Shown one piece after another: positions 11,987 to 62,585 of a stretch of 64,000 bases of DNA (the stretch's first letter is position 1; each line of letters begins with the position of its first letter). This DNA comes from Ignavibacteriota bacterium (GTDB taxonomy: Bacteria; Bacteroidota; Ignavibacteria; CAWHAG01), in the NCBI GenBank assembly GCA_963827285.1, contig CAWHAG010000001.1, positions 274,682 to 338,681 of the forward strand, read 5' to 3'. Below the pieces are notes generated by a model, which did no database searches, was not told the DNA's origin, and worked only from the letters and a program-made list of their open reading frames with translations. Position numbers and translations under genes: made by a program.

Positions 11987-12029
11987 GTTAGATCCCAGCC
12001 TTCTCCGAGAAGGCTGACGTCTGGTAATG

Positions 12030-12074
12030 AAAGTCCCAATCCCACATAAGCAGGATTGGGACTTTTGCTTTCTC
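12030..12074 (+). terminator. Rho-independent terminator between convergent genes
   Basis: 13-bp perfect inverted repeat AAAGTCCCAATCC / GGATTGGGACTTT with 10-nt loop, followed by TTGCTTTCTC; a second hairpin CAGCCTT...AAGGCTG lies just upstream. Confidence 0.7.
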
Positions 12075-12097
12075 AACCGTTTGAGATGGTAGTGTTG

Positions 12098-27031: not shown

Positions 27032-28753
27032 TCATTTCGTTATTTCCATTAGTTCTCTTGCTCCTCTCAAGCTCGCCTCCGTCACTTCCTCACCGCTCAT
27101 TAGTTTGGCAATCTCTCGAACTCGTTCATCGAGCTCGAGTTTTCGAATGGTGGTCGCAGCTCGCTTCCTGTCCACTGTCTTTTCAACGACGAAGTGCGTC
27201 TCGGCTAAGCCGGCAATCTGAGGGAGATGGGTGATGGCAATGATCTGATGGAAGTTCGAGAGCGTCTTTAGACTGATTCCCACTTTCTGTGCGATGCGAC
27301 CGCTGATACCGATGTCAATCTCATCAAACACGAGTATCGGAAGTCTGTCAGATTTTGCGAGAATCATCTTCAGCGCAAGCATCACACGAGAAATCTCACC
27401 ACCGGAAGCAACCTTCACGAGAGGCTTGACATCTTCGCCGATGTTTGTGGAAATATGGAACTCGACAAAATCAATTCCACATGGAGTTGTCTCATAAAAC
27501 TCCCTCCCTAGTTTCACATAACCCTTGGTCGGATTTCTGGAGTCTGCTTTCTGGCTCCTGTTCTCGATTTTGACTTCAAAACTCCCGTTGCTGATGCCAA
27601 GCTCCTTGAGGGCGTTCACTACTTGCCCGCTCAAGCGACCTGCCACTTCGCGTCGCTTTGTGGATAGTCTCTGAGCTAAGTTCGAACATTTTCTTCTCTC
27701 GCCTTCGATCGTTGCCTGCAGCTTCTGGATCTCAGTCTCGAAGTTCTCGGCGAGGGCAAACTCTTTCCCGATCTTCTGACGATGCTCGATCACCGTTTCC
27801 AGCGAACCGCCATATTTTTTCTTCAAGTGAGTAAGCTGACCCAGCCGATCTCGAATCTCCTCCAACCGCTCAGGATTAAATTCAATGCGTGCATTGTAAC
27901 TCTGGATGGTTTTCCGCAGCTCGTCCACAATCACTTCTGCAGAACGACATTCCTCCGTTGCTTCATGAAACGACTTATCTATCTGAGCAAGGTCATCCAA
28001 CTGATTCCGGGCAAGGACGAGTTGATCGTGTATGGAACCATCGTTCTCATACAAGAGTTGATACAGTCTCGTTGTTGCATCGTACAATCGTTCCGCGTTC
28101 TCCAGTATTCTCAATTCTGCTTCCAGTTCCTCCATCTCGCCCACACGGGGATTGACACTGTCAATCTCTTTGATCTGAAACTCGTATAGTTCCTTTCTCT
28201 CCTTGAGTAGTGCTTCTCTGTCTATCAGGGATTTCAGTTCTGCGAAGAGGCTGTTCAATTCTTGATAGGAAGTCTTGAACTCCTCCACCATTCCGCCTAA
28301 GCCGGCAAAGTCGTCCAGCAGTTCAATATGTGTTTCCGATTTCAAGAGCGACTGATGCTCATGCTGACCATGTAAATCCACTAGCATGTCGCCCACCTCT
28401 TTCAAGAACGATAGTGTTACCGGTGTGTCATTGATGAAGCATCGGCTTTGCACCTTGACGGAAACATCACGTCGCAGGATAACTTCTTCAGCGCATTCGA
28501 TTTGATGCTGTTCCAGAAGTGCTTTGAGTGTTTGGTTGCCTGAGACGTTCAACACTCCTTCAACGATTGCTTTCTCAGTTCCTCTGCGGATTTCCTCGAT
28601 GGTTGCACGCTCACCGAGCAGGAGACCCAGTGCATCAATGATGATGGATTTCCCGGCACCCGTCTCGCCCGTCAATATGTTCAGTCCGCTGTCAAACTGG
28701 ACTTGGATACTCTCGATCAGGGCGTAGTCTTGAATGTGAAGCGACTTGAGCAT
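27032..28753 (-). CDS. recN: DNA repair protein RecN
   Basis: 573 aa; N-terminal Walker A LNILTGETGAGKSIIIDAL; SMC-like coiled-coil architecture. Confidence 0.9.
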   Translation of the reverse strand: MLKSLHIQDYALIESIQVQFDSGLNILTGETGAGKSIIIDALGLLLGERATIEEIRRGTEKAIVEGVLNVSGNQTLKALLEQHQIECAEEVILRRDVSVKVQSRCFINDTPVTLSFLKEVGDMLVDLHGQHEHQSLLKSETHIELLDDFAGLGGMVEEFKTSYQELNSLFAELKSLIDREALLKERKELYEFQIKEIDSVNPRVGEMEELEAELRILENAERLYDATTRLYQLLYENDGSIHDQLVLARNQLDDLAQIDKSFHEATEECRSAEVIVDELRKTIQSYNARIEFNPERLEEIRDRLGQLTHLKKKYGGSLETVIEHRQKIGKEFALAENFETEIQKLQATIEGERRKCSNLAQRLSTKRREVAGRLSGQVVNALKELGISNGSFEVKIENRSQKADSRNPTKGYVKLGREFYETTPCGIDFVEFHISTNIGEDVKPLVKVASGGEISRVMLALKMILAKSDRLPILVFDEIDIGISGRIAQKVGISLKTLSNFHQIIAITHLPQIAGLAETHFVVEKTVDRKRAATTIRKLELDERVREIAKLMSGEEVTEASLRGARELMEITK

Positions 28754-28907
28754 GGTGGTAAGGAGAACGGAAATCCCAATTTCACTTCTATAGAATCACG
28801 ACACAATTTAAGGATTCTTTCGGTGAAATTCAAGCGAGCGGTGGGAAAATGCTGCAGTTAAGTCTGAGAGAGCCTCAAGACTGGAAGATCTTCTCCTGCT
28901 GCTTTGT

Positions 28908-29822
28908 TCATTTTAGATAAACTACACGGATCGTTCTCATCTTATGATTCCATCTGAGCCGAATAAGATACACTCCAGAGCCAACGTTGCCTCCAAAATC
29001 ATTTCTGCCATCCCAGCGCACACTGTGCTTTCCGGCTCCCAGTCGCTGTGGGGGGATTATTGTCCCTATCATCATTCCCAGTGCGTTATAAACCTCCCCC
29101 TTAACCTCCCCCGCTTGTGGAAGGTGATACACGATAGTGACAATACTGTTAAATGGATTCGGGAAACTCTGTTCAACAACGAAATCTGATGGCAATTCCG
29201 CCCTTGTTTGAGTGCTTGATACAAGGAGGCTCCCATACCTCTTTCCGTTGATGATTGCCCCAATGAGATAAAACCTAATCCCCCACTCTGCGAGTATATA
29301 ATAAGGTCCGAATTCATCTGCGAAATCAATCAGCTTCACATCCACACCGCGACCATACTCGATTTCCCTGGTTTCAACTGCATCGCCAAGAACAACCGCC
29401 TTACCATAGCCTACCATCGTTGCTGTCCCTGATCCACTTCTATAACTCATCCATGTCTCACCAACCTGCGCACCCAACTTGTCCATCAAGAACTCACCTG
29501 ACTCTCCTATATAGCGGCTATATCGGTAAGTGTTCAACGAATCGTCAATACGTATGGGTAGCCCGCCATCAAAGACATGGTACTTTTTCCCATTCGGCAT
29601 CAACGTATCTCGGATTATTTCTGCTGTTGTGATTGAGGTGTCCCCGGGCCAACCACCCTCTACCCTATACTGCCAGGCATTCCCTACTTGCAACGGATAG
29701 AAATTTTTCGTGGTGTCTGGTTGGGCAGATAAGCGGAACACGAGTAGAATTAACGGCAACGCTGCGGACAGTACTTTCGTCGTCACATTTCTCTGCACAG
29801 GAAAACGTTTAAGAAGAAGCAT
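28908..29822 (-). CDS. hypothetical secreted protein with T9SS-type C-terminal sorting domain
   Basis: 304 aa, signal peptide; C-terminal FPNPFNS...VYNALGMMIGTII...GVYLIRL resembles a T9SS CTD. Confidence 0.6.
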   Translation of the reverse strand: MLLLKRFPVQRNVTTKVLSAALPLILLVFRLSAQPDTTKNFYPLQVGNAWQYRVEGGWPGDTSITTAEIIRDTLMPNGKKYHVFDGGLPIRIDDSLNTYRYSRYIGESGEFLMDKLGAQVGETWMSYRSGSGTATMVGYGKAVVLGDAVETREIEYGRGVDVKLIDFADEFGPYYILAEWGIRFYLIGAIINGKRYGSLLVSSTQTRAELPSDFVVEQSFPNPFNSIVTIVYHLPQAGEVKGEVYNALGMMIGTIIPPQRLGAGKHSVRWDGRNDFGGNVGSGVYLIRLRWNHKMRTIRVVYLK

Positions 29823-30002
29823 GGACTTCCTTCAGAGTTATGTTTCAAAATGCATCTTCCGATAATTCCACAAAGGATTTCAGAATCGGAAGAACTCTAA
29901 GATGTTTATCTCCGGATGCGATCCAGGGGCCGAACAGCCCTGCACTTCACTGTGGCGATAGGTTAGAATCTTCTCGGTTGACCAACTACAGATACAAACG
30001 CA

Positions 30003-30047
30003 AAATCCCTATGCCACCTACCGTCATGGTAATTGGCATAGGGATTT
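30003..30047 (-). terminator. terminator-like hairpin (14-bp perfect inverted repeat) about 450 nt downstream of rplS
   Basis: AAATCCCTATGCCA ... TGGCATAGGGATTT with 17-nt loop; on the minus strand it is followed by TTTTGCGTTTGT. Confidence 0.5.
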
Positions 30048-30499
30048 CCTCAGCCGTCCGCCTAAGGCGGATGGCGGAGTTGAGAGGTCCCGTCACGACG
30101 GGACTTCAGTGCATGGTATCTCACCTTTGCGCTCTTCATGCGCACCCAACCGTCAATATAGCTTCACTAACTCGACACAGCTCGCTCGCTATTCCCACGC
30201 CAACAACATAATTAAAAGAAACCCGAAAGTCAAGAACTTTTCACGGAGACGACAGGTTTGGAGGATGGCTTTCGACAAGAGTCCGGTTCGGACCGCCACA
30301 TCTCTCAGAATTCATCCAGTGTCAGTCTCTAGCGCGCGTTTCTCTTCCTTATTTCAAGAGATTGATTTGGACTGGCCGTTACATCAAGGCAGGCTGGGGC
30401 GGCAAGTCTAGTCTAGGGCGGTGGTGGCGATCGCCTCTAAATGATGCGGAAGTGCACTCAGTATCCATGCTGTTTACATTCATCTGCCGCTGCCGAATC

Positions 30500-30844
30500 T
30501 CATGCTGCACTTGTCTTCTGGCGAACAGCTTTGGTAGCAAGTTGACGAAGATAGTATAACTTCGCTCTGCGGACTCTTCCTTTTTGGATCAGATCAACCT
30601 TCGCTACTCTTGGCGAGTGTAGTGGGAATGTGCGTTCAACACCAACACCGTCAGATATCTTTCTTACGGTGAATGTCGTCCCCATGCCCATTCCGCGCCG
30701 ACCGATGACGATACCTTGAAACTCCTGAATGCGCTCTTTATCGCCTTCAATTACTCTAACATGAACATTTACGGTATCCCCTGGTTCAAACCTCGGTATA
30801 TCGGTCTTCATCTGGGTTGCTTCGACAAGTTTCAATTTATCCAT
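30500..30844 (-). CDS. rplS: 50S ribosomal protein L19
   Basis: 114 aa; [30 protein letters not shown]...RRAKLYYLR matches L19. Confidence 0.95.
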
Positions 30845-36016: not shown

Positions 36017-36214
36017 GCAAATCTGCGCTCTCTTCATGTTGTCTCGACTTGATTCATGATTGAGCATGGTTGGACATGCTGCGCACTCCCAGAGTGCGTG
36101 GCACGTCCAATTTGAGGGCTGGGAAATCTCGTTGCGTTTCTGTCTTGATTCCCTCCTGAAAGTTTGTTATATTGCTTGCGGAGAACGTTCGACGTAAAAC
36201 CTGTGCGTAACGAC

Positions 36215-44867: not shown

Positions 44868-44913
44868 GCTACTCGATGTTTGAGTAGCTAAGAGTGAACG
44901 ATCCTATTTAACC

Positions 44914-44950
44914 AAAGTCCTGATGCCTCATCGGGACTTTTTCTTTTCTT
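44914..44950 (+). terminator. Rho-independent terminator after the second S8 peptidase gene
   Basis: AAAGTCCTGATG-CCT-CATCGGGACTTT hairpin followed by TTCTTTTCTT. Confidence 0.7.
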
Positions 44951-44988
44951 GATAAATAGAATATATTTTGTTATATTCAGTTCGAAAA

Positions 44989-45777: not shown

Positions 45778-46080
45778 GATTGTGTGAACATTCACTGCGG
45801 CAATCGTCGGTAAGCTGCAGAACAGATTTCAGCAGATATGCTGGTTGTCCCGCGGAGCGGGATTCCGCTACCGCGGAACAGATTACCGGTTGGTGCTGGA
45901 GAGATCTGATGACCTGTAACCCGAAATCTCTCTCATCATTCACATACATTTCCGTCGGAGGTGGATAAGTGGCGCAAAGTGGTGCTTTTCAGCATCATGG
46001 TGCGTGGCAGTCACTCCATGGCGTTACAGGCGCTGACCTCTGACTTAAATCTAAGAACAACATAGGAGAACGATAACGAA

Positions 46081-50689: not shown

Positions 50690-50718
50690 TTGACTTTTTC
50701 TGAGCGAATTAGTATATT
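50690..50718 (+). promoter_or_regulatory. rRNA operon promoter P1 (TTGACT-17-TATATT) with A-rich upstream stretch
   Basis: Sigma70-like hexamers at consensus spacing about 215 nt upstream of 16S. Confidence 0.6.
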
Positions 50719-50750: not shown

Positions 50751-50779
50751 TTGACTTGAGATGTTTTTTTTTGTATATT
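50751..50779 (+). promoter_or_regulatory. rRNA operon promoter P2 (TTGACT-17-TATATT)
   Basis: Hexamers identical to P1, 61 nt downstream, followed by a T-run. Confidence 0.6.
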
Positions 50780-57094: not shown

Positions 57095-57875
57095 CTGATC
57101 CGTAGCTGGCAGTCGCGAGTATGTAAATCATATTGCTTAGACTTGACAATCGTGTTCTTACCACGCCGGAAAGGAACAGGATATCACATGCGAAATCCCT
57201 TCATAGAATTCCACCCTTGTCTCTCACCTTCATAGAAGAGAGTCTCCTTGTCGAACTGATCTAGCAGTCGAATCAATCATGAAACATCAAGGTCAAGTTC
57301 CAACCTCGCAGTGATCTCACTTCTCACGCTCGCTCATCTTATCCTCGAGAGTCTCTCCACATCAATCCATCTATTCTCAGAGCAATCAGCCTCATTCCAA
57401 AACTCAGTTTCCAAGAATGAATTCCATTGTGAATGCTGGTGTCATTCCAAGGAGGTCCATCTGCAAATCTTACCAATGACACCGAAATATTTACCTGGGA
57501 AATCTGAACGAAAAAGAATTCGCCAAAGAAATCCAAACGGTGCTTAGTTTTTGCTAAATCCGGGGGATCAGATATCAACTTGAAAGCGAAGAGAAAATGG
57601 TACGATGATTGCATACGATAAATTAGTGGAACTCTCTCTAGTGGTGGACTTCCCATCAAGATTTGTCGGAATCAAAAGGATGAACATTTAGTTCTACGAT
57701 TCAAAGGGAAAGGCCAGTTCGTGGGTCCTCTGAATCAAGTCCCCAGGGTGAGCTTTCGCTTCGCATGACATGATGCACAACACCACTTGAAACCAGTCAT
57801 CTACAGAGCGGCCAAGAACTTCATTGACAAATCGTCTCGGCGTTCTTCCATCCATCAAGGTTGGGACGTGACACA

Positions 57876-60800
57876 ATGCTGAAACAACTCCTTCGTTTCA
57901 TAGCCAGTCTCGAACTCATACTTATCGTTGGCGCGACGCTGAATGCTGGATCTCTGATCCCCCCTCGGCACTTGGGTGAACTGTCAAGTCTAAGCGATGC
58001 AGCACTATTGGGGAGAGCGAGAGCATCTCGCGTTGTGAAACATGGTTCACTTTTGTTCACCCGGACATCTTTCGAGGTGTTGGATGTGATGCGGGGATCT
58101 GTGCGGAAGGGTGATAGCGTTTGTGTTGAGACTCCCGGAGGGGCGGGGGATGGTGTGGCTTGGTTGGTGCTCGGTTCGCCGCGATTCTTGGAGGGGCAAG
58201 TTTATCTCCTATTCCTAAATCGCAAATCCCCTGATGTGTGGCAGCCGCGTATGCTCTCGTATGGATTGCTGCAGCGCGTTAGAGGTCGCGATGGCACAAA
58301 TCTTCTTGTTCCACTTGCTGAGAGAGACGGACTTCAGCCCTTTCCACGTCCAGATGGAGTTGTCCCCGAGCCCGTTGGTATCTACCGAGAGAAGATGCTC
58401 CTCAGCCATCTGACACAAGTCGTGCGAGGAGAAATCCGGTGGAACTCGAAGGCTGTACTAGCACCCAGCGAGGTGATACCTACAGAAGCGTTGCAGGTGT
58501 TGGCTCCACCTTCTCAGTGTGCGTTCATGAATTATGGAGGTCTGAACATAAGGTGGAACGTGTTCGATGGTGGCGGACAGGTCACTGTCAGTGCTAATGC
58601 GACTGGAGACAACTCTCTTCCTGGAGGTGGCTTCGCAGAGGTGCAAGGGGCTGTCTCGGATTGGATGAGCGTTCCTAACACCACCATCAACCTCGGCTAC
58701 GGGGGTGCCATGAGCTACGCCATGACCTGTACCGGAAATCAGGACACGCCCGCCTCTGGTGTCAACATAGTAATGTTCAACGACCCATGCTCGGATATTC
58801 CTGATCTTTCAGGCTGCACTGGGACGCTGGCATTCGGTGGACCATGGTTCGGCGGCACACACACGTTTGATGGCGCTACGTGGTACTCTATTCAGAGCTG
58901 CTTTGTCGTGGTGAACAACGGTGTAGGTTGTCTGGGTAGCGCCAACTACCGGCGAATGATAGCTCACGAGTTGGGCCACGGTTTGGGCTTTGGTCACTTC
59001 AGCGACCCCAATGCTCTCATGTATGCCTACTGCTGCAACTCTATCAGCTCGACGGACATAACGTGTGCACAATACCTTTATCCCGTGGTGCTTTCAGCAC
59101 CTTCACTCTTGTCTCCATCAGATGGTGGGACAGATGTTTCAACGAGCCCGACGTTGAGTTGGAACGCTTCCAGCGGTGCGACTTCGTATCGGTTGCAGGT
59201 TTCGACCAGTTCAGGCTTCGCGACAACAGTGTATGATCAAAGCGGAATTACGGGTACTTCTCAGGCTGTGACAGGTCTTTCAAACAATACGATGTATTAC
59301 TGGCGAGCGAACGCGACTAACGCTGGAGGGACAAGCGCTTGGTCCAGCATCTGGAGTTTCACTACAGCGGGTGGCGTGACTCCGTCACCTCCAGTGCTTG
59401 CCTCCCCCGCAAATGGTGCAACAAGTGTTTCAACGAGTCCGACATTAAGCTGGAACGCCGCGAGTGGCGCGACATCATATCGGTTGCAGGTGTCAACAAA
59501 TTCAAGTTTCTCGTCAACGGTGTTTGATCAAAGTGAAATCACAAGCACTTCTCAGGTGGTGACAGGTCTATCGAACAATACGATGTATTACTGGCGAGTG
59601 AACGCCACTAATACTGCAGGGACAAGTGTCCGGTCTAGTGTATGGAACTTCACAACGATTGCTGGCGTACCGTCAGCACCAACGCTTGCTTCACCTTCCA
59701 ATGGTGCAACAGGAGTATCAACAAGTCCGACCTTGAGTTGGAATGCTTCGAGTGGAGCGACATCCTATCGCCTGCAGGTCTCTACAAGTTTAAGTTTTTC
59801 GACAACAGTGTTTGATCAGAGTGAGACAACTGGAACATCGCGGCTCGTGAGTGGGCTATCGAATAACACCATCTACTACTGGCGAGTGAACGCAACTAAT
59901 GCTGGAGGGACAAGCGGTTGGTCTGGCATGTGGAGTTTCACAACGACGGGTGGGGTCGCTCCCTCAACACCAATGCTTGCCTCGCCGGCAAATGGTGCGA
60001 CTGGAGTCTCAACAAGTCCGGCATTGAGTTGGAACACTTCTAGCGGTGCGGCTTCGTATCGGCTGCAGGTTTCCATGACTTCTGGTTTCGCGACAACAGT
60101 GATAGACTCCGGTGGAATAGTGGGAACGTCAGTCTTGTTGAGCAGTCTTGTCAACAACACTACCTACTTCTGGCGTGTAAATGCGACAAACGCTGGAGGG
60201 ACAAGCGATTGGTCTAGTGTGTGGAATTTCACAACGACTGTGGCAGCTCCCTCGCCGCCAACTCTTGCCTCTCCGTCAAATGGTGCAACTGGAGTCTCAA
60301 CAGGTCCGACATTGAGTTGGAACACTTCTAGCGGTGCGGCTTCGTATCGGCTGCAGGTTTCCATGACTTCTGGTTTCGCGACAACAGTGATAGACTCCGG
60401 TGGAATAGTGGGAACGTCAGTCTTGTTGAGCAGTCTTGTCAACAACACTACCTACTTCTGGCGTGTAAATGCGACAAACGCTGGAGGGACAAGCGATTGG
60501 TCTAGTGTGTGGAATTTCACAACGACTGTGGCAGCTCCCTCGCCGCCAACTCTTGCCTCTCCGTCAAATGGTGCAACTGGAGTCTCAACAGGTCCAACAT
60601 TGACTTGGAACGCTTCCAGCTCTGCAACTTCGTATCGGCTGCAGGTTTCCATCACTCCTGATTTCGTGACGACAGTGATAGACTCTGGTGGAATGGCAGG
60701 AACATCAGTCATGCTGAGTAGTCTTGTCAACAACACCACTTACTACTGGAGAGTGAGTGCAACAAACGTTGGAGGAACAGGCGCCTGGTCAAGCGTCTGG

Positions 60801-62585
60801 AGCCTCACAACCATTGTGGGACCCCCATCACCGCCTCTACTCGTTTCTCCTTCGGACGGCGCGATCGGTGTTTCGACGAGTGAGACGCTAGTCTGGAATG
60901 GCTCAGCGAATGCTGCATCATATCGCCTGCAGGTTTCCATCAATCCAGATTTCTCGGAGATCTCGTTCGATCAAAGCAGCATCGCGAGTACTTCGCAGGT
61001 CGTAACTGGACTTTCAAACAACTCAGCATATTACTGGAAGGTGAATGCGGTGAATGCTGGTGGAACTAGTATCTGGTCAAACGTCTGGTCTTTCACAACC
61101 ATGCTTGCTCCACCAATTCTCGCCTCACCTTCAGATGGTGCGACGGGTGTTTCAACTGATCCAACACTGACCTGGAGCAGATCCAGCGGTGCGACATCGT
61201 GTTGGATACAAATCTCCACCAGCGCAGACTTCTCTTCTCTCATCATCAACCAGAGTGGAATCCCGCTTCCGCTGTACAAGGCGAACAGTCTATCCAGTAA
61301 CACAACGTATCATTGGAGGGTTAATGCAGGAAATGCAGGAAGAACAAGTGTCTGGTCGAGCGTCTGGAGTTTCACGACGGTTGTAGCGGCTCCATCAATC
61401 CCGAGCCTTGCATCTCCATCGAATGGTGCTGCAGGTGTCTCCACAAATCCCACCTTGGATTGGAACGCCTCATCAGGTGCAACATCATATCGGCTGCAAG
61501 TTTCCACCAGTTCTCATTTTGAAACGACGGCCACTGACACGAGCGGGATTCCGGGAACGTCAGTCCGGACCAATGGCTTAGCCAACCATAGGACATACTA
61601 TTGGAGACTGAGCGCGACGAACGTAGGGGGAACGAGTGATTGGTCATCCGTGTGGGATTTTATGACCACCAACAGGGCGCCCAAACTCATTCTCGGTGCT
61701 TACGACACCACGATCAATCAAGGTGAACTTCTAAGCTTCAGCGTTGCAGCGGCAGACTCGGATTACGACCCATTGGCGTTCACGGGGTTCAATCTCCCAC
61801 CAGGAGCTACGCTTGATTCACTCAGTCCCACAAGTCGGGTGTTCGACTGGACACCCACGTACACCCAAGAGGGAGTCTTCAGCAACATCAAGATCGTTGT
61901 CTCCGATGGTGATTCATCAGACAACGCACAGTTTACGATCACTATCAGGAAAGTGAATAGAGCTCCAGCACGGTTCGCTCTTGTATCTCCGACATCAGGA
62001 GATACAGTCGCACTGACGTTTCCATCCAAACCGATTGTCTTTCGTTGGCACAAGTCAATAGATCCGGACGTTTCAGATACAGTCAGGTACTCGCTGCGTG
62101 TAACGGGTTCAGGATTCGATGACATGGTGGCTAATATCAAGGATACGACCGTGTTGCTCGATATCATGTCCCGCCTCAAGAACTCAAGCATTTACTTGTG
62201 GTATGTGGTTGCTACCGACGGACAGCTTGCATCAAACTCGGATTCTGCCACCTTCAGAACATCCTCAAGAGTCACGGGCATGCCTGACAACGTCAAGAAG
62301 ATGCCGACAGAATTTGCGTTACATCAAAATTATCCCAATCCGTTCAATCCATCTACAGAGGTTGTTTTCGCCGTTCCAAACCGGTGTCGTGTGAAGATAG
62401 ACATCTTCAGCGTTCTGGGCAACGTAGTATGTGAAATGACAGATGCAGAGTACCCGGCGGGTGTTTATCGTGTGCGATGGAACGGGCAAAGCACATCAGG
62501 AGCTGCGGTTTCAAGCGGTGTCTATTTCTATCGGATGATAACTGAGACTGGAGTGTTCACTAAAAGAATGGTTTTGCTGCGATGA
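57876..62585 (+). CDS. giant secreted metzincin-like zinc metalloprotease with nine tandem Fn3-like repeats, cadherin/Ig-like domains and T9SS C-terminal sorting domain
   Basis: HELGHGLGFGH (HExxHxxGxxH) followed by ALMY Met-turn; nine units of about 96 aa (SP.NGATGVSTSPTLSWNASSGATSYRLQVS...YYWRVNATNAGGTS.WSS.W.FTT); C-terminal FALHQNYPNPFNPSTEVVF...GVYFYRM CTD. Track ORF starts at a TTG (57861). Confidence 0.8.
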   Translation: MLKQLLRFIASLELILIVGATLNAGSLIPPRHLGELSSLSDAALLGRARASRVVKHGSLLFTRTSFEVLDVMRGSVRKGDSVCVETPGGAGDGVAWLVLGSPRFLEGQVYLLFLNRKSPDVWQPRMLSYGLLQRVRGRDGTNLLVPLAERDGLQPFPRPDGVVPEPVGIYREKMLLSHLTQVVRGEIRWNSKAVLAPSEVIPTEALQVLAPPSQCAFMNYGGLNIRWNVFDGGGQVTVSANATGDNSLPGGGFAEVQGAVSDWMSVPNTTINLGYGGAMSYAMTCTGNQDTPASGVNIVMFNDPCSDIPDLSGCTGTLAFGGPWFGGTHTFDGATWYSIQSCFVVVNNGVGCLGSANYRRMIAHELGHGLGFGHFSDPNALMYAYCCNSISSTDITCAQYLYPVVLSAPSLLSPSDGGTDVSTSPTLSWNASSGATSYRLQVSTSSGFATTVYDQSGITGTSQAVTGLSNNTMYYWRANATNAGGTSAWSSIWSFTTAGGVTPSPPVLASPANGATSVSTSPTLSWNAASGATSYRLQVSTNSSFSSTVFDQSEITSTSQVVTGLSNNTMYYWRVNATNTAGTSVRSSVWNFTTIAGVPSAPTLASPSNGATGVSTSPTLSWNASSGATSYRLQVSTSLSFSTTVFDQSETTGTSRLVSGLSNNTIYYWRVNATNAGGTSGWSGMWSFTTTGGVAPSTPMLASPANGATGVSTSPALSWNTSSGAASYRLQVSMTSGFATTVIDSGGIVGTSVLLSSLVNNTTYFWRVNATNAGGTSDWSSVWNFTTTVAAPSPPTLASPSNGATGVSTGPTLSWNTSSGAASYRLQVSMTSGFATTVIDSGGIVGTSVLLSSLVNNTTYFWRVNATNAGGTSDWSSVWNFTTTVAAPSPPTLASPSNGATGVSTGPTLTWNASSSATSYRLQVSITPDFVTTVIDSGGMAGTSVMLSSLVNNTTYYWRVSATNVGGTGAWSSVWSLTTIVGPPSPPLLVSPSDGAIGVSTSETLVWNGSANAASYRLQVSINPDFSEISFDQSSIASTSQVVTGLSNNSAYYWKVNAVNAGGTSIWSNVWSFTTMLAPPILASPSDGATGVSTDPTLTWSRSSGATSCWIQISTSADFSSLIINQSGIPLPLYKANSLSSNTTYHWRVNAGNAGRTSVWSSVWSFTTVVAAPSIPSLASPSNGAAGVSTNPTLDWNASSGATSYRLQVSTSSHFETTATDTSGIPGTSVRTNGLANHRTYYWRLSATNVGGTSDWSSVWDFMTTNRAPKLILGAYDTTINQGELLSFSVAAADSDYDPLAFTGFNLPPGATLDSLSPTSRVFDWTPTYTQEGVFSNIKIVVSDGDSSDNAQFTITIRKVNRAPARFALVSPTSGDTVALTFPSKPIVFRWHKSIDPDVSDTVRYSLRVTGSGFDDMVANIKDTTVLLDIMSRLKNSSIYLWYVVATDGQLASNSDSATFRTSSRVTGMPDNVKKMPTEFALHQNYPNPFNPSTEVVFAVPNRCRVKIDIFSVLGNVVCEMTDAEYPAGVYRVRWNGQSTSGAAVSSGVYFYRMITETGVFTKRMVLLR
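59110..61670 (+). repeat. intragenic tandem repeat, nine units of about 288 bp (coding Fn3-like modules)
   Basis: Periodic antisense ORFs (59876-60160, 60164-60448, 60452-60739) and near-identical protein units; units 4 and 5 (about 60030-60300 and 60318-60588) look identical over roughly 270 bp by eye. Confidence 0.8.

Follow-up and report, generated by a model that had tools for sequence, protein, structure and literature searches.

A candidate promoter-to-terminator unit in a rearranged spacer downstream of rplS in an Ignavibacteriota genome

Described RNA systems and the spacer after rplS

Trans-encoded small RNAs (sRNAs), such as the Hfq-type sRNAs of Proteobacteria, are intergenic transcripts of about 200 nt that start from a sigma-70 promoter, have little structure in their 5' part, and end in terminator hairpins followed by a U tail, and calls of such RNAs are usually supported by conservation in relatives. 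Features of this kind are predicted for the spacer between rplS and the next gene within a 64-kb window of Ignavibacteriota DNA (the window being the whole stretch that was analysed), but the putative spacer unit has no homologue in the relatives searched, and shows no target complementarity above background. When duplex energies were computed against 34 gene starts of the window, the best value (-43.1 kcal/mol) equalled, in effect, the mean best value of shuffled controls (-42.5 kcal/mol).

Several other described systems share part of this arrangement. The fold of 6S RNA is a rod whose 5' and 3' ends are paired and whose middle opens into a large bubble; the spacer unit resembles it in size (about 200 nt) and in its strong housekeeping-type promoter, but gives no covariance-model match to 6S RNA (RF00013) or 6S-Flavo (RF01685) at E ≤ 10, and its predicted fold has three local hairpins instead of a rod. 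Leader attenuators and riboswitch leaders, from which a short terminated RNA is released, are also comparable, having a promoter, a structured leader with a terminator, and a same-strand gene without a detected promoter of its own. Unlike them, the spacer has no Rfam match, no conserved aptamer-like core and no credible antiterminator, and the leaders of homologous genes are unrelated to it. The hairpins look much like the terminator clusters at gene ends of the same window (11987-12097, 44868-44967 and 36017-36163), which are tandem near-perfect hairpins, one with an A-tract and a UUUUGC.UUU tail; however, the spacer cluster lies about 390 nt past the rplS stop codon, and what is found roughly 100 nt before it is an rRNA-type promoter, not a gene. 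Read on the plus strand, the spacer has a 36-mer that resembles a repeat and contains a hairpin, and after it three stem-loops, as in tracrRNAs or CRISPR relics, but the window is without an array or cas genes, and the repeat similarity is weak and statistically inflated. To our knowledge, almost nothing is known about regulatory RNAs in the host phylum.

The gene order on the minus strand is ffh, rpsP, a KH-domain gene, rimM, trmD, rplS, the 677-nt spacer, a gene for a 304-aa protein, recN and cysS. The rplS gene (30500-30844, minus strand), which codes for ribosomal protein L19 (PF01245 in an identical contig), is the final conserved gene of the cluster ffh-rpsP-KH-rimM-trmD-rplS, and recN was recognized as an ORF at 27032-28753 (minus strand). 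Neighbouring large ORFs of the window specify proteases, an alpha-2-macroglobulin and housekeeping proteins. Elsewhere in the window, an ORF of 1574 aa (57861-62585, plus strand) contains 5.8 tandem copies of a 288-nt unit (59139-60819, 80% matches) and presumably codes for a repetitive surface or secreted protein. The source is an uncultured, Ignavibacteria/Kapabacteria-like bacterium of the FCB group. The best matches to L19 among GTDB species representatives are only 75–80% identical, and are labelled as Ignavibacteriota, Bacteroidota or 'Chlorobiaceae' MAGs. An independent Logan assembly (L081, run ERR10755944) matches the window base for base across the spacer region, so the arrangement is not a misassembly of one pipeline.

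A preliminary description of the spacer had reported no minus-strand ORF of 60 aa or more, and this is borne out. The longest minus-strand ORFs are of 53 aa (30379-30540, overlapping the end of rplS) and 36 aa (two examples). Plus-strand ORFs of 123 aa (29840-30211) and 100 aa (30109-30411) are present, neither with a Pfam match, and for the former there is no real homologue among 1.84 billion representatives.

The same description had proposed a candidate small RNA that could be assessed by an Rfam scan and by conservation after rplS in related genomes, and neither check came out in its favour. With Rfam 15, the whole window matched only rRNAs and two tRNAs at gathering thresholds, and the interval 29700-30620 gave three noise matches at E ≤ 10 (the best being mir-7131, with 22.9 bits against a gathering score of 74), so no family was matched at either level. 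The families covered include 6S, 6S-Flavo, SRP RNA, tmRNA, RNase P, riboswitches, ribosomal-protein leaders and the Chlorobi/Bacteroidetes motifs, and ARAGORN detected no tRNA or tmRNA in the spacer region. Neither BLAST nor nhmmer found a relative of 30235-29823 among 179 related loci (about 1.2 Mb around rplS, recN and T9SS homologues; 80 of them are GTDB loci around rplS). A single-sequence covariance model of the hairpin region (R1) was run against the window and 97 of the 179 loci (the rplS, T9SS and close-relative loci), and retrieved only its own source. Exact searches with a 23-mer in JGI metagenome contigs and with an 18-mer in viral contigs were negative, as were blastn searches against plasmid and phage collections, and the spacer element has no second copy in the 64-kb window that would mark it as a REP/BIME or MITE-type repeat. 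The proposed RNA belongs to no curated RNA family and lacks the conservation on which sRNA calls usually rely.

Promoter and hairpins on the minus strand

A predicted sigma-70-type promoter, TTGACT-17-TATGTT, was located at 30233-30205 (minus strand) by a motif scan and by comparison with the rrn promoters. The -35 hexamer TTGACT occupies 30233-30228 and the -10 hexamer TATGTT occupies 30210-30205, with 17 nt between them, and these correspond to the promoter-like TTGACT and A/T-rich -10 segment that had been pointed out earlier. The pattern TTGACT-N17-TATNTT has exactly three occurrences in the 64 kb when both strands are counted, where 0.02 would be expected, and a spacer of 677 nt would contain one by chance with a probability of about 2e-4. 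The promoter call is made credible by the remaining two sites, which are the tandem promoters of the 16S rRNA gene (TTGACT-17-TATATT, at 50690-50718 and 50751-50779) and lie 170–230 nt upstream of it. A generic promoter scan returns 9/12 matches at a near-chance frequency. The 13 nt around the -35 element, AAGTTCTTGACTT, are the same in the spacer site and in rrn P2, and about 27 of 38 positions agree between the two promoters (hand count on the alignment). The site has a spacing within the 16–18 nt usual for sigma-70 and hexamers like those of the strong promoters of this organism, and is probably a strong promoter of the rRNA-promoter class. A derivation from a duplicated recN promoter was considered and set aside, as the match of the TTGACT site to the recN promoter is not above chance.

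Close to the rRNA promoters, and divergent from them, is a 12/12 consensus promoter (TTGACA-17-TATAAT, 50672-50644, minus strand) that precedes an amino-acid permease gene by 240 nt. The promoters of the rRNA operon and the permease gene indicate that the lineage uses classical sigma-70 promoters and not the TTTG/TAnnTTTG type of Bacteroides.

Downstream of the spacer promoter, three inverted repeats follow one another almost contiguously from 30107 to 30003 (minus strand). Hairpin 1 (GAAGUCCCGUC-GU-GACGGGACCUC; 30084-30107) has a folding energy of -12.8 kcal/mol (z -2.7), and hairpin 2 (CUCCGCCAUCCGCCU-U-AGGCGGACGGCUGAG; 30049-30079) one of -20.5 kcal/mol (z -4.4). Hairpin 3 (30003-30047) is the most stable of them, and consists of an A-tract and a 20-bp stem (arms of 20 nt, forming 15+5 pairs) followed by the U-rich tail UUUUGCGUUUG; the hairpin reaches -30.2 kcal/mol (z -7.0), and together with the tail it occupies 29995-30047. 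The stable hairpins described previously, ending in a hairpin at 30003-30047 and a T-rich tract, are accordingly all present. When the 25,580 segments of 50 nt in the 64 kb, on either strand, are ordered by stability, hairpin 3 comes second and the hairpin 2 region fourth, and the 221-nt stretch 29985-30205 (minus strand) has a folding z of -5.1. Both the MFE and the centroid fold contain three independent local hairpins and a weakly folded 5' part, and the predicted 5' part of the transcript (30108-30198, minus strand) is not significantly structured (z -1.0). The earlier characterization of the spacer as a structured region is apt for the hairpins, which are highly stable, but these are largely a terminator cluster of the gene-end type, and the 90 nt at the 5' side do not share their stability.

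The tail of hairpin 3 (UUUUGCGUUUG, at 30005-29995) is an interrupted U-tract, and the hairpin was not listed by a simple terminator scan, probably because three U's of the tail can pair with the upstream A-tract. Its A-tract/stem/UUUUGC.UUU design (AAAUCCCUAUGCC…GGCAUAGGGAUUUUGCGUUUG) is the same as at the gene ends at 44914-44940 and ~12030-12075. Apart from those of the spacer, the most stable segments of the 64 kb all lie at gene ends, and when gene-end spacers were folded, two or three tandem near-perfect hairpins turned out to be the local norm; in each of them one hairpin is bordered by an A-tract and by a tail like UUUUGCUUUC or UUUUUCUUUUCUU. Very stable tandem hairpins, two or three per spacer and with z values of -4 to -6, are seen, for example, at 11987-12097, 36017-36163, 45778-45927 and 44868-44967, and in the spacer of 303 nt that follows surE (45778-46080) both strands are strongly structured. 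Within the stems of the rplS spacer, transition mismatches yield G.U pairs on the plus strand for the first two hairpins and on the minus strand for the third, a mixed pattern that gives no sign of strand-specific selection for pairing. The most suitable reading of the three hairpins is a terminator cluster, not an elaborate RNA fold, and hairpin 3 is predicted to be an intrinsic terminator, both for transcripts of the spacer promoter and for read-through from rplS. The possibility that hairpin 3 is an ancestral terminator was rejected, as its match to the pre-recN terminator of a related contig (L095) did not exceed shuffled controls.

History of the region between rplS and recN

The 80 GTDB relatives, without exception, have a gene of ~270 aa at 0–100 nt past rplS, with recN after it. 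In the closest metagenomic relatives, the ~270-aa gene belongs to PF02621 (VitK2_biosynth, MqnA-like). The identity of their L19 to that of the window is 96% for contigs L090-L094, 85% for L095-L097 and 84% for L099-L100; L090 is the closest, and its rplS is 91% identical at the DNA level. The mqnA gene is absent from the whole 64-kb window, where the MqnA-like proteins of the relatives have no tblastn match, and the organism may have lost or relocated a step of menaquinone biosynthesis (mqnA-like, of the futalosine-pathway type).

A DNA alignment with L090 accounts for the part of the spacer next to rplS. Immediately after the gene, 69 nt of the ancestral rplS-mqnA spacer (30431-30499, minus strand) are ~90% identical to L090, and are followed by a decayed, mqnA-like 5' remnant (PF02621; 30380-30430, minus strand, aligned to L090 525-575) that has lost its start codon and acquired in-frame stops. 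About 850 nt of mqnA are missing. An mqnA pseudogene in the spacer was therefore discounted, since tblastn is empty and only this ~50-nt remnant is left at the DNA level. Further on, a non-coding block (30236-30350, minus strand) is 73% identical to the DNA directly 3' of mqnA in L090, and a 2-nt indel relative to L090 disrupts all of its reading frames, which argues against coding. It is worth recording that this 115-nt block has been kept (73% against L090 1427-1546) despite deletion of the gene that preceded it. Just past the rplS stop codon there is also a run of ~33 bases (30472-30440, minus strand), CAGCATGGATACTGAGTGCACTTCCGCATCAT, which is identical in L090 although rplS itself is only ~91% identical; it starts with the ATG of a short ORF that overlaps the mqnA start in L090, and could be an upstream ORF or some other conserved signal.

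Homology with L090 ends at 30236, exactly at the -35 element of the spacer promoter, and L090 continues at the syntenic site with unrelated sequence up to the end of its contig. On the other side, the DNA upstream of recN is colinear with L095 and L099 from ~28848. The intervening ~1.39 kb (28849-30235, minus strand) is absent from relatives, and comprises the promoter, the hairpin region, the gene for the 304-aa protein and ~60 nt of 3' flank; its left boundary (30235) is firm and its right boundary (~28849) approximate. These alignments indicate that the spacer is a mosaic, in which mqnA was lost and ~1.39 kb (30235 to ~28849) was gained, and the 680-bp length of the spacer is a consequence of the two events and not of a large RNA gene. 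The ends of the insertion show no convincing terminal repeats or target duplication, and a mobile element was for this reason not retained as the origin of the insert. Searches anchored on recN for upstream DNA of the L090 type returned only relatives with at most 66% identity.

Two JGI contigs from different samples, both of the relative with 96% L19 identity, end shortly after rplS (L089 at 37 nt and L093 at 36 nt past the gene), and the two breaks correspond to practically one position in the window, which points to strain heterogeneity or to a hotspot of rearrangement at the junction in natural populations. At the recN side, two relatives (L095 7470-7553 and L099 7200-7284) have a conserved, promoter-like TTGAAT-17-TAnATT element upstream of recN, directly followed in the leader by a hairpin that is GC-rich, has GCAAAAGC as its loop and shows apparently compensatory changes in the stem, and by a U-tract about 25 nt before the ATG. 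By its sequence features, this leader hairpin looks like a terminator or attenuator, and it is degenerate in the window (28754-28848).

The gene carried by the insert (28908-29822, minus strand) specifies a protein of 304 aa that carries a signal peptide and, at its C-terminus, a T9SS sorting domain, recognized from the ORF and by a domain search. Homologues at 60–64% identity are found in quite different neighbourhoods and have unrelated upstream DNA. Two of the contigs that code for homologues (L082 493-521 and L181 1353-2500) show long upstream non-coding DNA and then a beta-helix/M6-peptidase-like T9SS protein. Between the terminator hairpin and the gene start are 172 nt (29823-29994, minus strand), in which promoter and hairpin scans detected no sigma-70-like promoter match, two small hairpins, and an AAGGAAG motif 3 nt before the ATG.

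Interpretation of the spacer unit

The spacer feature is real. Its ordinary component is the terminator cluster, situated in a rearrangement scar; the suggestive one is the rRNA-class promoter 100 nt upstream. Our tentative reading, to which we give slightly less than an even chance, is that the promoter and hairpins form a self-contained, lineage-specific, promoter-to-terminator unit making a non-coding RNA of ~200 nt. From its likeness to the rRNA promoters, we infer that the strong sigma-70 promoter at 30233-30205 (minus strand) fires and would start an RNA at the G at ~30198, a start placed by the position of the -10 hexamer. The RNA would begin with a weakly structured 5' part of ~90 nt, continue through two stable hairpins, and end at the terminator hairpin (30047-30003) with its U-rich tail. 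The predicted product, from 30198 to ~29997, would be about 200 nt long, close to the 190 nt or so of the preliminary estimate. The same terminator cluster would also halt read-through from the rplS operon, which lost its downstream gene mqnA, and the transcription unit would represent the 5' end of the ~1.39-kb segment that also brought the gene for the T9SS-sorted protein. Consistent with such a unit, no ORF on either strand has family or homologue support, and there is no sigma-70-like promoter between hairpin 3 and the T9SS gene. The short RNA would most likely be a young orphan sRNA or a prematurely terminated leader of the T9SS gene, with any function being conjectural. The candidate small RNA of the preliminary description thus keeps its promoter, its hairpins, its terminator and its strand, but it has neither an Rfam match nor conservation in the relatives searched.

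The closest rival to an independent ~200-nt RNA is that the promoter serves the T9SS gene itself. The 376 nt to the ATG would then be a 5' leader that is stabilized or attenuated by its hairpins, with the ~200-nt RNA as the terminated leader and read-through as the mRNA. The insert begins at the -35 element and ends a little beyond the T9SS gene, as would one expression cassette, and the gene is preceded by no other sigma-70-like promoter. Long leaders also have precedents, as another strong promoter of the window sits 240 nt before its gene, a 60%-identical homologue of the T9SS gene (in L082) is preceded, at about 270 nt from its ATG, by a promoter with 11/12 consensus positions, and the L181 homologue has more than 570 nt of non-coding DNA upstream. 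Other findings speak against a leader. The homologues examined (L082-L088 and L181, 33–64% identity) have upstream DNA that is unrelated and not rich in hairpins, and no sequence is shared among their leaders; that of L082 has a z of +1.4, that of L181 is devoid of inverted repeats, and the L087 homologue has a spacer of only 73 nt. In addition, a U-tailed hairpin of -30 kcal/mol would end much of the transcription, and no significant antiterminator pairing was found, the sole candidate being a 9/10 direct repeat at chance level. We regard this leader as a credible but unlikely alternative. On a more deflationary view, which we would also place on the unlikely side, the spacer holds only terminators, of the rplS operon or of a donor gene whose 3' end arrived with the insert, in junk DNA, the promoter-like site is unused or fortuitous, and any RNA is functionless. 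Gene ends in this genome routinely have two or three tandem hairpins, the spacer region is conserved nowhere among the loci searched, its mismatches show no strand preference, and the generic scan for promoters performs near chance. Moreover, an open frame (…VLDFRVSFNYVVGVGIASELCRVSEAILTVGCA*) stops 30 nt short of hairpin 1, which is how the end of a truncated donor gene would look, but the corresponding peptide has no detectable relative among the fetched loci. Such a view must also accommodate a pattern expected only 0.02 times in 64 kb (~2e-4 in the spacer) that is nevertheless present, and with an identical -35 context of 13 nt.

Two further alternatives concern the coding and CRISPR-like content of the spacer. 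The plus-strand 123-aa ORF matches only two translated CRISPR arrays (P0361 and P0362), by virtue of GPNSPALHCG, which resembles their repeated GANSPLLHCG; this peptide is the translation of a 36-nt segment (29921-29956) with an internal GGGC…GCCC hairpin. A plus-strand, tracrRNA-like RNA (an anti-repeat and three hairpins) or a solitary repeat relic at 29921-29956 would agree with the plus-strand order of a repeat-like segment followed by three hairpins, and with the better pairing of hairpins 1 and 2 on that strand. Yet it is the eightfold occurrence of a single short motif that inflates the E-value, only about 20/36 nt agree with the deduced repeat (hand count), and the plus strand is without a terminator past hairpin 1, while its sole promoter-like site would start transcription inside hairpin 3. 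The window lacks a CRISPR array and contains the motif only once, no cas gene occurs among the large ORFs within about 30 kb, and for these reasons the CRISPR matches were treated as chance. The likeness of 29921-29956 to a CRISPR repeat is probably fortuitous, and a CRISPR-related RNA here is very improbable. A small conserved protein gene, which the preliminary description had named as a finding that would speak against an RNA, was not encountered either. Possible candidates are the 36-aa ORF at 30189-30299 (minus strand), which has a hydrophobic tail and lies partly inside the block conserved in L090, and a 25-aa ORF that starts at 30138 (minus strand). Neither is convincing, since the 2-nt indel relative to L090 shifts the frame within the conserved block and the ORF ends differ, there is no Pfam match, the start is GTG with an unpersuasive ribosome-binding site, and the 25-aa ORF crosses hairpins 1 and 2. 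We consider a small protein to be improbable in the extreme.

Returning to the ~200-nt transcription unit, a stronger version would make its product a recently born, highly expressed orphan RNA, arising where an rRNA promoter copy, or a convergent version of one, came to stand before ~200 nt of new DNA and a terminator cluster, at the place where mqnA was lost and a T9SS cargo gene gained. This more specific scenario is distinctly doubtful.

The length of the spacer is explained whether or not an RNA is made, and if none is made, the locus is an operon terminator in the leftover DNA of a gene loss and an insertion. The analysis also provides a 'grammar' for this genome, i.e. TTGACT-17-TATATT promoters and tandem gene-end hairpins with A-tracts and U-tracts, that should be useful for annotating the remaining genome. 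If the RNA is made, the locus would contain an unannotated strain- or species-specific sRNA or leader under an rRNA-class promoter, and would show in a clean case how units of this kind come into being at rearrangement scars. Should such an orphan RNA act in trans, or attenuate the T9SS cargo gene, it would document the de novo birth of a regulatory RNA, tied to gene replacement, in an uncultured Ignavibacteria-like lineage.
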